A stretch of 64,000 nucleotides of DNA from Candidatus Latescibacterota bacterium (GTDB lineage Bacteria; Latescibacterota; UBA2968), in NCBI GenBank assembly GCA_965116885.1, contig OZ220741.1, positions 1,984,001 through 2,048,000 on the forward strand, written 5' to 3'. Positions 5,422 through 41,893 of this stretch are shown in pieces. Position 1 is the stretch's first letter, and each line of letters opens with the position of its first letter. The translations under genes and the position numbers were made by a program. The notes under the pieces were generated by a model, which was not told the origin of the DNA, did not search any database, and saw only the letters and a list, made by a program, of their open reading frames with translations.

Positions 5422-5484
5422 GTAGGGGACGGCCCCCGTGCCGTCCCGTTTGTCATCGCGGCCTGATGTTGGGCCGCGATCCAG
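5422..5484. repeat. Composite palindromic repeat: GTAG-type REP-like hairpin plus GTCATCGCGG...CCGCGATCCAG hairpin
   Basis: GTAGGGGACGGCCCCCGTGCCGTCCC is identical at 58177..58202; the second hairpin recurs at 58207..58238. Confidence 0.8.
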
Positions 5485-6040
5485 GGCTTTTTCGTATGAC
5501 TGCCGCAACGAAATCAGTTTTTGCAGCCTGATAAGCTTTTCGGTCTCCTTGAAGTCTCAGGAGTAGATCGCGTTTCAGTTCTTTATACTCTTCGGCAGTC
5601 TTTTGATGCGTTCTCAAATAGTTTCGGAATAAGATTAATTTTTCCCATTCTTCGCTATCTTTTTCGAGTAGATGGATGTGATGGGTGCATGGCTCGCCTT
5701 TTAGAAAATAGTGTCTGCGAGGTATGCCGTTCTCTCCCTTGAAAGTGTATCCCCTGTCACAGAGAGGCTTTATACATATTCTGGCTTCTTCAAAGTCTTT
5801 GACAGCGATTGCAATGTCCAGGATTGGCTTGGCAGGCATTCCCGGAATTGATGTGCTGCCGACATGCTGTATGTCCTCGATATAATCTCCTATTGCTTTT
5901 TCAATATCCCTCTTTTCTATTTCGAATAAGTTTTTCCATTCTTCCCGATAAGGGGAAACGCGCAGTTCCCCACGCTTCAGACCGAGTGGAAATTGGTTGC
6001 TGGTTTCGGATTCCTGATACATTTCCTCTTTATCATTCAT
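5453..6040 (-). CDS. GrpB/UPF0157 family protein (nucleotidyltransferase-like)
   Basis: IQHVGSTSIPGMPAKPILDI, HHIHL, LFRNYLR, Y..LK, Y..AK motifs. Confidence 0.92.
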   Translation of the reverse strand: MNDKEEMYQESETSNQFPLGLKRGELRVSPYREEWKNLFEIEKRDIEKAIGDYIEDIQHVGSTSIPGMPAKPILDIAIAVKDFEEARICIKPLCDRGYTFKGENGIPRRHYFLKGEPCTHHIHLLEKDSEEWEKLILFRNYLRTHQKTAEEYKELKRDLLLRLQGDRKAYQAAKTDFVAAVIRKSPGSRPNIRPR

Positions 6041-8522
6041 GTCGCAAGGCCTCTATTGGATTTGTATGGGCAGCCTTGATCACCCTATACGCTACTGTTA
6101 TGGTTGTCAAGGCAACCATAAATGCACCACCAATTAAAAACGGCAGTGCCGAAATCTCAATGCGATAGGCAAAATTCTGTAACCATTCATTGGTTGCCCA
6201 ATAGGCAATCGGCCATGCCAATAAACATGACACCAATACCAGGCGAATAAATTCTTTCAAGAACAGCCCTACGACAAGACCCGCAGATGCACCCAATACC
6301 TTGCGAATGCCCACTTCCTTTTTGCGCTGTTCGGTCAAAAATGAGACCAGCCCCAATAGGCCCAGACAGGCAACAAAAATAGCCAGAGCAGCAAAAACGC
6401 TCATCGCGCGGCTCAACTGTCGCTCTTGTGCATATCGCTGATTCAGATTGTCATCCATAAACGTGTAAGCAAAAGGGCGAATCGGCAAAAAATGTTTCCA
6501 TACCTTTTCCATGTGTGCAACGGTTTCATCGAAATTATGAGGGCTTACTTTTAGATAAAGTGTCTTGGGTACCGCGTTGTTCGCATATAAAACCACGGGC
6601 CCCAGTGGCTCGTGCAATGTGCGCGAATGAAAGTCTTTAACCACGCCTACAACACGCCCTGGTCTTCGCCCCTTCACTCCAAATGGTTTGCCAATGGGGT
6701 CTGTCCAGCCCAGCATTTTAACAGCGGTTTCATTGAGAATGTATTCTGCCTGACCGTGAACTTTCAATTGGTCCAACTGATCTCGGGGCACAAACGATTC
6801 CGAATCATATCTTTTCGCTGCGTGTTCTGAAAAGTCGCGGCCAGCAACAAGCTCAATATTGAAGAAACTCAGAAAATCTTCATCTACTTCATTCCTGCCC
6901 ATACGCAATTCTTCTTTGCCCGGTTCATAAGCACTAAAAGTCGCTTGTGGCGCAGTGCGTCCGTGTGAAGAACGCGAAATCGTTGCAGCCGTAATATTGG
7001 GGTGCTGCAAAAACGCATCTTTGACAACATTGTACCGTTCCCACAAGCGATCTTCACGCAAACGAGAATTGCGAGATTCCCACAAGAGACGAGACTCAAC
7101 GACGTACTCTTTGTCAAATCCCAGGTTTTTATTCTGGATATACGACATTTGATTAAACACAACCAATGTGATCACAATCAGTGCAATAGATGTGCTAAAC
7201 TGAAAAACCACCAGCACTTTGCGCAATAACCTACCGCGGGCACCTGCTGCGAGTGTGCCTTTGAGCACTTCAACAGGCCGAAACCGCGATAAAAGAAATG
7301 CTGGATAAATCCCCGTAATAAGTCCTGTTATCAGAGATAATCCAACCAGAGCCAGCACCATATTGCCCGTGATATCCAATGTCAAAGAATTACTCGTATA
7401 GTCGTTGAAATGTGGTAAGAAATCAGAAACAGCAACTAACCCTACAATCAAACTCAATACAGAGAAAATCACCGACTCGGCCAAAAATTGCAAAGCGAGT
7501 TGTCCTCGATGCGCACCGACCACTTTTCGCAATCCCACCTCGCGTGCCCGGTTAGCTGACCGTGCTGTGGTCAAATTGATGAAGTTGATGCTCGCAATTA
7601 AAAAAATGAGAATGGCTGTAGCAGATGCAGCATAAATATGTGCAATATTGCCATATATCACTGGCCCTTCAAGGTCGGATACGTCTCGAAGCCCGTAATC
7701 GCGTCGTGAGTATAAATGCACTTCATCCATGGGCTGGAAGTGATACGTCGTGCGTGCTACCATTTCTGGTCCCATATACTGTTCCACCATCGCGGGCATT
7801 TTTAAAGCCAATTTTTCAACTGACGTGTTTTCTTTTAACCGTACGTGGACCGTGATTGCGCCTCTCCAATGTGCTGTTGGCAAATAGGCATTCCAGTATC
7901 GAGAAAGAAAAACAGGCCTGACAGAGGCTGAAAGCATATCAAAACGAATCGAAGATCGCCTGGGCAAATCTTTAAGCACACCCGCGACAGTATAATCGCC
8001 CCCAATAAAGCCACTTTCGATCGTAAACACTTTGCCTATGGGGTCTTGATCGCCAAAGTAATCGCGCGCCATAGACTCGGTGATAAAAACAGAATTGTGC
8101 TGTAAAAGAGGGGTCTTGTCACCCTGTATCATTGGGAAGTTAAACATATCCAGGCAATTCGGGTCCGCGAGACAAAATACCCGATTCAAGACTTTGTCCT
8201 CATGCTGCACCCAGGCTTGGCGAAGCATTGTGCGTGTGGAGATTTCAACTTCGGGGAAATCGCGTGCCAGAGTGGGGCCAACTGCACCCGAAATGCGCCA
8301 GTCGTATGTTTTCTGACCATTTTCTGATCGATACTCACCAATGATTCGATACAAGCGATCTGTGTGTGGATGTTGGGTGTTAATAGCCAACTCGTTTTGT
8401 ACAAACAGACCGATCAAGATGACACACCCAATGCCAATGCCCAGCCCGATAACATTGATCGCTGAGTACATTTTGTATTTGAGCAAATTGCGAATCGTGA
8501 TGACGAGATAGTTTTTGAACAT
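6033..8522 (-). CDS. ABC transporter permease, duplicated MacB_PCD/FtsX architecture (copy 1)
   Basis: 829 aa; MFKNY..RNLLK, INFINLTTARS..RAREVGLRKVVGA, second EVGIRKVLGAS, C-terminal NPIEALRHE. Confidence 0.93.
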   Translation of the reverse strand: MFKNYLVITIRNLLKYKMYSAINVIGLGIGIGCVILIGLFVQNELAINTQHPHTDRLYRIIGEYRSENGQKTYDWRISGAVGPTLARDFPEVEISTRTMLRQAWVQHEDKVLNRVFCLADPNCLDMFNFPMIQGDKTPLLQHNSVFITESMARDYFGDQDPIGKVFTIESGFIGGDYTVAGVLKDLPRRSSIRFDMLSASVRPVFLSRYWNAYLPTAHWRGAITVHVRLKENTSVEKLALKMPAMVEQYMGPEMVARTTYHFQPMDEVHLYSRRDYGLRDVSDLEGPVIYGNIAHIYAASATAILIFLIASINFINLTTARSANRAREVGLRKVVGAHRGQLALQFLAESVIFSVLSLIVGLVAVSDFLPHFNDYTSNSLTLDITGNMVLALVGLSLITGLITGIYPAFLLSRFRPVEVLKGTLAAGARGRLLRKVLVVFQFSTSIALIVITLVVFNQMSYIQNKNLGFDKEYVVESRLLWESRNSRLREDRLWERYNVVKDAFLQHPNITAATISRSSHGRTAPQATFSAYEPGKEELRMGRNEVDEDFLSFFNIELVAGRDFSEHAAKRYDSESFVPRDQLDQLKVHGQAEYILNETAVKMLGWTDPIGKPFGVKGRRPGRVVGVVKDFHSRTLHEPLGPVVLYANNAVPKTLYLKVSPHNFDETVAHMEKVWKHFLPIRPFAYTFMDDNLNQRYAQERQLSRAMSVFAALAIFVACLGLLGLVSFLTEQRKKEVGIRKVLGASAGLVVGLFLKEFIRLVLVSCLLAWPIAYWATNEWLQNFAYRIEISALPFLIGGAFMVALTTITVAYRVIKAAHTNPIEALRHE

Positions 8523-41720: not shown

Positions 41721-41773
41721 ATCGGGCCTCCGTCTCTATTGTGCAGTAAAGTACAACGGGTTATACAATTGTG

Positions 41774-41893
41774 AAGCAAAAATTATGCCAGAAAAGTCAA
41801 ATATTGGAATTACAACAGGTTACGAAAATCATCTGAATTTAGCGTCTTGTAAAGTGTCCGATTTTGATACAGTGGTGTCCGAAAATGAACACT
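41774..41893 (-). promoter_or_regulatory. Sigma-54 promoter with upstream enhancer-like sites (copy B)
   Basis: Minus strand TGGCATAATTTTTGC at 41790..41776; 43-bp block 41851..41893 identical to 11140..11182; shared CAACAGGTTA spacer motif. Confidence 0.85.

Follow-up and report, generated by a model that had tools for sequence, protein, structure and literature searches.

Sedentary chromosomal integrons are long co-oriented rows of small, unrelated and mostly promoterless genes, toxin-antitoxin (TA) pairs among them, with attC sites of at least 57 nucleotides (nt) that carry R''/R' core motifs, and O-antigen and capsule loci are replacement islands in which a cluster specifies a single coherent pathway and is exchanged in its entirety for an alternative one. 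As described in the part of a hotspot survey drawn on here, many hotspots of gene transfer hold no mobile elements and recombine at flanking core genes (Oliveira, Touchon, Cury and Rocha, 2017; PMC5635113). Additive flexible genomic islands, as far as the portion of that work used here goes, are site-directed integration hotspots (tRNA, integron) with near-identical cassettes across species (Lopez-Perez and Rodriguez-Valera, 2016; PMC4898812). Here, we analysed a stretch of 64,000 nt from a Candidatus Latescibacterota bacterium (C1:1984001-2048000, hereafter the window) that contains a ~36-kb array of duplicated permease genes and small unrelated genes. The source genome (G000) is a single contig of 5.56 Mb, and positions without the prefix C1 refer to the window. 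With a probability of about 60%, we regard the locus as an integrase-free flexible genomic island, that is a hotspot of gene turnover, within sigma-54-driven operon-like arrays.

The array (5453-41720) consists of eight duplicated MacB/FtsX permeases and about 23 small genes (Table 1). Among its open reading frames (ORFs) of at least 120 amino acids (aa), 27/28 are on the minus strand, and this same-strand bias lies at the 99th percentile among 30-gene runs of G000. Pfam assignments and the ORF listing agreed with the gene inventory and the near-uniform minus-strand orientation given in an initial annotation made from the letters alone, and its short spacers were recovered as well, with 25/31 below 57 nt. 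Most spacers measure -20 to 63 nt, many of them being 1-30 nt or overlaps, and several are long (153-509 nt). The GC content is 46.2% in the array versus 51.1% in the genome. According to Pfam the cargo comprises three GNAT proteins, two NUDIX proteins, four methyltransferases (MT1-MT4), two APH-type phosphotransferases (APH1, APH2), two HAD proteins (one on the plus strand), RidA, GrpB, a C45/AAT-family protein, a metallophosphoesterase and an ankyrin protein, together with a DUF3368/UPF0175 TA pair and a plus-strand orphan UPF0175; an HNH protein, an AAA_33 kinase-like protein and an ORF without family complete the set.

DNA searches against 30 relatives showed that parts of the locus are collinear in many species of the genus, and the whole locus was compared by blastn in seven same-genus species assembled in one or few contigs. 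Both flanks (1-3503 and 44994-48000) were found in 7/7 relatives with 86-96% identity, and array genes, where present, showed 84-96% nucleotide identity, like the flanks. The interior was variable: 29/32 array genes were absent from at least one of the seven relatives, and only MT1, NUDIX1 and the ankyrin gene occurred in all of them. The idea of a locus that gains and loses single genes, put forward in the initial annotation, therefore held when the relatives were aligned, as only these 3/32 genes were common to all seven and the flanks were conserved. As a control, the 19.6-kb right flank was near-fully collinear in 5/5 relatives. Array size ranges from 13.8 to 42.6 kb across genomes, with 2-9 permease-size ORFs, and co-orientation holds in all eight genomes (10/10 to 27/28 ORFs on the array strand). 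The loci of the seven relatives contain 76 crude ORF families without a counterpart in G000, and a Pfam search of 44 relative-only families revealed four more permeases, a methyltransferase, an alpha/beta hydrolase, a GNAT protein, an ABM monooxygenase, a TPR-thioredoxin and more TA pairs. Insertion sequence (IS) genes of the IS4/5, IS630 and IS256 types and TnpB genes were detected in the relatives' loci.

Breakpoints between the genomes are concentrated at gene ends. Of the 76 breakpoint clusters inside the array, 45 are no more than 30 nt away from a gene boundary, compared to a random expectation of 6.3 +/- 2.5 clusters (maximum 16 in 2000 trials). The APH1 indel, for example, spans 13971-14910 and covers the gene from its stop codon to its start codon with 1 nt added, and the indels of MT2, RidA, MT3, MT4 and P7 (permeases are numbered P1 to P8 by position) are similarly gene-precise. 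Many breaks cut a gene 4-72 nt short of its 3' end (GrpB, GNAT1, GNAT2, GNAT3, AAA_33, HNH, NUDIX2, MT3 and MT4), and when breakpoints were read against the gene map a leader of ~15-25 nt usually stayed with the downstream gene. This asymmetry may be explained by selection acting on untargeted breaks, since a change of the C-terminus would be tolerated and loss of a start codon or ribosome-binding site would not. About 50 indel junctions, inspected by eye and without a formal motif search, showed no direct repeats, target-site duplications or common motif, and repeat finding in the array returned only paralogous coding similarity and the promoter module described below. Imperfect events were observed as well: internal deletions of P3 and P4 in G017, deletions in the plus-strand HAD gene in G009 and G015, MT2 stubs in G002 and G015, and in the window a stub of about 60 nt of a lost toxin (~26462-26520) beside the orphan UPF0175 antitoxin, whose DUF3368 toxin partner is intact in G004 and G017. 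The MT2 slot differs between G000 and G009. In G015, two copies of the 52-nt stretch 13932-13983 are present and APH1 is relocated, as expected from a tandem duplication followed by differential loss.

For the phylogenetic analysis, a tree was derived from a 6.7-kb rpoB region with two outgroups. On this tree, presence and absence of the 29 variable genes required 64 changes, with at least two changes for 23/32 genes, and shuffled taxon labels gave 65.9 +/- 3.6 changes, 35% of the shuffles doing as well; the flank trees led to a similar picture. The left-flank, right-flank and rpoB trees conflict with a support of 0.97-1.0. A divergent right-flank allele unites G015 and G004 (support 1.0), which are apart in the left-flank and rpoB trees, the identity of their right-hand DUF6785/DUF6784 allele being 82-83% versus 92-95% in the others. 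At rpoB, G002 is second closest to G000 (96.1%), but within the right-hand array block no relative is farther away (88-90%); G015 shows 93.3% at rpoB, yet 11.27 kb of its right-hand array block are at 94.7%. Tree conflict, rank shifts and gene movement together would favour exchange plus duplication and deletion over vertical loss alone. The cargo genes are under purifying selection: for shared cargo genes, the ratio of nonsynonymous to synonymous substitution rates (dN/dS) was 0.04-0.24 with APH2 left out, and dS was 0.12-0.41 versus 0.18-0.33 in the flanks. Such values indicate a functional cargo that has resided in the clade for long, and the comparison seems to point to a clade-resident gene pool rather than to recent distant imports.

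The visible shifts in base composition could be read as a sign of piecemeal foreign origin. The shifts are real, with gene GC of 0.40-0.55 across the array, but they are not unusual: the standard deviation of GC at third codon positions (GC3) is at the 46th percentile of the genome's 30-gene runs, and the difference between adjacent genes at the 79th. In composition, only the low array mean GC3 stands out (1.3rd percentile of 30-gene runs). Composition as a sign of foreign origin was therefore rejected, GC3 heterogeneity being ordinary for this genome, and the shared cargo is as diverged as the flanks.

With the hotspots described in the consulted part of PMC5635113, the locus shares a fixed spot between conserved genes that concentrates turnover, the lack of an integrase, tRNA or self-mobile element with only sporadic IS, and signs of homologous recombination at a flanking conserved gene. 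It differs from them, as far as that part of the survey describes them, in its packing in one direction with tiny spacers in sigma-54 operon-like arrays and in its single-gene turnover, for which conserved genes of the interior could be extra anchors. Common to it and the additive islands, in the portion of PMC4898812 used, are an equivalent location within the genus, varying number and kind of cassettes, content that is not tied to phylogeny, and a cargo including transporters, efflux functions and TA systems; in contrast to those islands, neither a tRNA nor an integrase was found here, and the shared genes are as diverged as the flanks (84-96%). Low-GC co-oriented rows, conserved flanks, mosaicism at gene boundaries and flank recombination are also found in O-antigen and capsule loci as covered by the same portion of that paper (PMC4898812). 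The cargo described here is functionally unrelated and varies gene by gene, which sets it apart from such loci. Compared with known islands, new features are the embedding in sigma-54 operon-like arrays, the turnover of single genes and junctions that are trimmed to gene boundaries.

The promoter at the array head, TGGCATAATTTTTGCT, meets the canonical GG/GC spacing (TGGCAC-N5-TTGCW) at 41790 and at 11079, where an identical copy stands ahead of permease 2. Both copies are part of a ~130-nt module, and the versions at 41761-41893 and 11051-11194 are 85% identical. Upstream of the promoter lies a conserved 45-nt box (GTGTTCATTTTCGGACACyACTGTATCAAAATCGGACACTT) with two CGGACAC-containing half-palindromes 21 nt apart, presumed to be the binding site of a sigma-54 activator. 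Outside the window, box copies were located at C1 23972, 268472, 581124, 1195488, 1208340, 1229509, 1234744, 3147828, 4854631 and 5153485. TGGCAy-N5-TTGCw follows at a fixed offset of 109-110 nt past the box in 10/12 genome copies, and the genome encodes rpoN (427.9 bits versus a cut-off of 277) and about 25 full Sigma54_activat domains. From the regulon-wide fixed offset and the presence of rpoN, the earlier description of the array as sigma-54-headed is well supported at the sequence level. An ORF of the ~800-aa permease type is found downstream of at least 8/12 boxes. Other boxes precede a thioredoxin-like gene that opens a second array (array 2, see below) and a 224-aa ATP-binding cassette (ABC) ATPase (C1:23119-23793) followed by an ankyrin gene, and the remaining ones an LRR (leucine-rich repeat) protein with a redoxin and a TPR protein with a Ser/Thr kinase. 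Box and fixed-offset promoter would thus define a genome-wide sigma-54 regulon that includes a stand-alone ABC ATPase, and since boxes stand ahead of ankyrin, LRR and TPR genes, eukaryote-like repeat proteins appear to be co-regulated with the orphan permeases.

A single promoter for the whole 36 kb, as assumed in the initial annotation, does not agree with the second module before the permease at 8586-11057, the terminator-like hairpin at 21014-20984 and the spacers of 153-509 nt. This hairpin is the sole strong one; terminator-like sites in general showed no excess over shuffled sequences (25 vs 19.3 +/- 4.8; 18 vs 18.1 +/- 4.5), and the counts of a sigma-70 promoter scan were likewise not above shuffled expectation. 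An Rfam search over the whole window gave no match at the gathering score, and therefore no known RNA element or riboswitch accounts for the spacers.

All eight permeases of the window (788-831 aa) carry a MacB_PCD and two FtsX domains by Pfam, and four of them, P4 to P7, are direct neighbours (28026..37787). No ABC_tran match was obtained among the scanned window ORFs. The best NCBIfam model for all eight was ADOP (TIGR03434), with 254.7-321.1 bits versus a cut-off of 622.3, and genome-wide the model gave 65 matches, none above the cut-off, and 37 full-length permeases. In common with ADOP are the size of ~800 aa, the two MacB_PCD/FtsX halves, the large paralogous family and the lack of an adjoining ATP-binding-cassette gene; scores far under the cut-off, N-termini of the MFKNYL type and a host from the Latescibacterota instead of the Acidobacteria are differences, as is the presence of ABC ATPase and HlyD genes in another permease array of G000 (array 2). 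The window permeases may therefore be called ADOP-like by architecture and paralogy, yet they stay below the family cut-off. With 33-54% pairwise amino-acid identity and longest common exact DNA matches of 10-19 nt, the eight are old paralogues. No published description of such permease arrays was found in the literature searched on duplicated orphan permeases and Latescibacterota FtsX.

Two further arrays of G000 behave alike. Array 2 (C1:1197185-1248592, plus strand) holds 16 of the genome's 37 full-length permeases, together with an ECF sigma factor, a Gp49/HTH TA pair, ABC exporters, a PIN protein, a metallophosphoesterase, a HAD protein, a histidine phosphatase, an alpha/beta hydrolase, a LytTR two-component pair, an HlyD adaptor and two stand-alone ABC ATPases, and it is mosaic in 5/5 relatives. 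In relatives, permease modules of array 2 (C1:1195716-1248592) occur in several copies at 75-88% identity, so that recent duplication does occur there, unlike in the window array. Array 3 (C1:128360-146273) contains 21 co-oriented small-enzyme genes and no permease: six GNAT, two NUDIX, APH, RidA, methyltransferase, HIT, DoxX and racemase genes as well as genes for a dCTP deaminase-like protein and an AadA_C nucleotidyltransferase. It is syntenic yet mosaic in 5/5 relatives, with breaks at gene boundaries. Judged from these alignments, mosaic turnover would be a general behaviour in G000 that comprises the window array, array 2 and array 3.

These observations can be combined as follows. The core of the locus is formed by the old duplicated MacB/FtsX 'orphan' permeases (ADOP-like) in the box and sigma-54 regulon, and small self-sufficient enzyme genes and TA pairs would collect between and behind them, co-oriented and thus expressible without a promoter of their own. 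Homologous recombination with DNA of related lineages, anchored in the flanks and in shared array genes, would reshuffle array genes from a pool common to the clade; single genes could move within the array when a local tandem duplication is resolved by differential loss; and illegitimate deletions as well as insertions of IS, TnpB or TA genes would add to the variation. Selection for intact neighbours and a compact operon would then retain those junctions that lie in short spacers or in the last few codons, and such trimming by selection could give a cassette-like look without site-specific recombination.

Several points weigh against this reading. Recombination events were never caught directly, and repeated independent loss could equally yield the homoplasy. 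The first entry of a promoterless gene into a spacer of 10-30 nt would be left unaccounted for by homologous exchange, and illegitimate recombination filtered by selection is a matter of argument rather than of measurement. Each tree was built from 2-7 kb of eight genomes with relatives that are non-independent, only genes of G000 entered the presence/absence test, and ORFs in the relatives were called crudely, as the longest frames without overlap. The dN/dS range leaves out APH2, and some frameshift flags may be errors of long-read assembly. Transcription from the sigma-54 module and any read-through along the array are predictions, and an export or detoxification role of the array would follow from family names alone.

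Pure differential loss, in which a very large vertically inherited array suffered species-specific deletions without any exchange or gain, would fit the flank-like divergence of shared genes and the remnants (MT2 in G002 and G015, the P3/P4 deletions in G017, the toxin stub), but we consider it unlikely, as 23/32 genes need at least two events on the rpoB tree, no better than with shuffled labels, the flank trees conflict with strong support, the slots of MT2 and APH1 differ among genomes, and the 76 relative-only crude ORF families would demand an implausibly large ancestor. Two more distant congeners, G016 and G018, which are 83-86% identical in the rpoB region, also speak against it, having a permease 8 orthologue but no other array gene within the 60 kb fetched around it; with only this gene in common, they do not allow gains to be polarised against losses. 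Gene-precise indels (APH1, MT2, RidA, MT3, MT4, P7), co-orientation kept in all eight genomes, single genes in differing slots and the like behaviour of a permease-free array could instead reflect a dedicated cassette mechanism, with a trans-acting recombinase or a junction-specific process that moves single promoterless genes in and out at operon junctions. The gap concerning first entry leaves a small chance for it, and with equally low odds the genus may own an integrase-independent single-gene mover, an integron analogue without attC that acts on permease and permease-free arrays. Such a mechanism is hard to reconcile with the failure to find any repeated junction motif, direct repeat or hairpin, with spacers mostly too short for a site, with the lack of a recombinase in or beside the eight loci except scattered IS and TnpB genes, and with break positions that vary between the spacer and points up to 72 nt inside 3' ends; the duplicated 52-nt junction remnant rather fits duplication, then loss.

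Unequal homologous recombination between the paralogous permeases, proposed in the initial annotation, would add or remove blocks. Permease ends do share short conserved stretches (N-terminal MFKNY-type and C-terminal NPVDALR-type codons), and a deletion in G014 removes exactly P5, between similar N-terminal codons of P4 and P5. Nevertheless, the paralogues have the low protein identity and short exact DNA matches given above, the majority of indels concern one small gene without permeases on its borders, and permease-free array 3 is equally mosaic. As the main route it was thus rejected, and overall we judge it very unlikely. Even less can be said for a degenerate integron (an attC cluster that lost its integrase) or a chimera of the metagenome assembly from which the genome derives; both are extremely unlikely. 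Head promoter, cargo spectrum, TA pairs, a co-oriented row of small genes with short spacers, and content that varies between relatives do resemble sedentary integrons, but here large permeases stand in the row, and a terminator-like hairpin is present besides two or more promoter modules. As the initial annotation had stated for the window, no tyrosine recombinase was detected among its scanned ORFs, nor was one in those of the seven relatives' loci; the genome has four PF00589 matches, of which the closest is 66 kb beyond the end of the window, and no tRNA was found at the locus. Its statement that no site is repeated between genes stands for attC-like repeats, none of which was found in the array by repeat finding, but not for the promoter module, the sole repeated intergenic element. 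R''/R' core pairs were absent from the array (0 found vs 6.7 expected), and only 6/31 spacers offer the 57 nt needed for attC. An integron or attC cluster was consequently rejected: the locus is integron-like in its outcome and lacks both defining integron features, IntI and attC. An assembly chimera is not likely, because most of the window junctions recur in independently assembled genomes of other species.

Table 1. Features of the window around the permease array (window coordinates; basis of assignment and occurrence in the seven relatives)
Feature	Position	Strand	Basis, occurrence or remark
Left flank: DUF6785/DUF6784 protein (695-2665) and PhyH oxygenase	695..3503	-	7/7 relatives, 90-96% identity
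GrpB	5453-6040	-	Pfam; in 6/7 relatives
Permease 1	6033-8522	-	MacB_PCD + 2 FtsX; in 3/7 relatives
Permease 2	8586-11057	-	MacB_PCD + 2 FtsX; in 3/7 relatives
Second upstream box and sigma-54 promoter module	11051-11194	-	Box at 11136-11182; TGGCATAATTTTTGCT at 11079
HAD hydrolase gene	11197..11889	+	Pfam; internal deletions in G009 and G015
Block of 15 small genes	11914..22558	-	Pfam; C45/AAT, GNAT1, HAD/PNK3P, APH1, APH2, MT1, MT2, NUDIX1, RidA, GNAT2, GNAT3, ankyrin, DUF3368 toxin, UPF0175 antitoxin, AAA_33 kinase-like
Terminator-like hairpin between TA pair and ankyrin gene	20984..21014	-	14 pairs, then T run; consensus match only
Permease 3	22612-25059	-	MacB_PCD + 2 FtsX; complete in 2/7 relatives, truncated in 2 more
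HNH protein, orf116, 509-nt scar region, metallophosphoesterase, NUDIX2	25235..27872	-	Pfam
Orphan UPF0175 antitoxin in 509-nt scar region	26237-26461	+	Pfam
Permease 4 (P4)	28026-30392	-	MacB_PCD + 2 FtsX; in 4/7 relatives
Permease 5 (P5)	30404-32899	-	MacB_PCD + 2 FtsX; in 3/7 relatives
Permease 6 (P6)	32896-35334	-	MacB_PCD + 2 FtsX; in 6/7 relatives
Permease 7 (P7)	35352-37787	-	MacB_PCD + 2 FtsX; in 3/7 relatives
Methyltransferase MT3	37810-38439	-	Pfam; in 5/7 relatives
Methyltransferase MT4	38470-39276	-	Pfam; in 6/7 relatives
Permease 8, array head, ADOP-like	39285-41720	-	MacB_PCD + 2 FtsX; in 5/7 relatives
Sigma-54-type -24/-12 promoter TGGCATAATTTTTGCT	41790-41775	-	Begins 70 nt before the first permease ATG
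Conserved 45-nt upstream box	41851..41897	-	12 genome copies, 90-100% identity
IS605-family TnpB insertion (ORF 42386-43507)	42155..43613	+	Pfam OrfB_IS605 and Cas12f1-like TNB domain; 0/7 relatives
Right flank, beginning with second DUF6785/DUF6784 protein (44995-46977)	44994..48000	-	7/7 relatives

Some observations concern the surroundings of the array. Both array flanks begin with paralogous DUF6785/DUF6784 proteins, each beside PhyH-family oxygenases. Between the left-flank PhyH gene and an epimerase-like gene, a second variable spot was noticed (3504-3742) that is nearly empty in G000 and holds 3-12.5 kb in relatives. Inserts at this spot include a 1133-aa heparinase-like protein and the defence genes found left of the relatives' arrays, namely AAA_21/DUF4276, a Type ISP restriction-modification enzyme, ApeA-HEPN and the toxin Gp49, and from this gene content the spot would be a small defence island beside the array. 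At the other end, the TnpB insertion splits a gene that is divergent from the array head (pieces at 41990-42170 and 43599-43970, plus strand). This gene is intact in G009 (395 aa, L007:6092-7279); the 3-keto-disaccharide-hydrolase fragment seen in the window is the counterpart of its C-terminus, and its N-terminus looks, by eye, like an ECF sigma factor. Within the array, the ankyrin gene contains a 281-nt tandem duplication (19831-20111 and 20122-20402; 87% identity), which is retained in relatives. In the right flank, intergenic stretches of 60-120 nt (~56560-56641, 57457-57541, 58131-58251, 61151-61223 and 62703-62786) match dozens of sites at 84-98% identity in every relative searched and look like dispersed repeats of the REP (repetitive extragenic palindromic) or MITE (miniature inverted-repeat transposable element) type.

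Therefore, from the conserved flanks, the mosaic interior, the position of the breakpoints and the conflicting trees, the locus is probably an integrase-free island in which an integron-like product can arise without integron machinery. It offers a tractable example of the problem of hotspots without mobile elements in a barely studied, uncultured phylum, and it suggests that embedding in an operon can shape where breakpoints survive. In addition, the 12-copy box regulon would tie about 37 orphan MacB-type permeases to ATPase, ankyrin, LRR, TPR and redoxin genes, and this makes the function of a large permease family testable.

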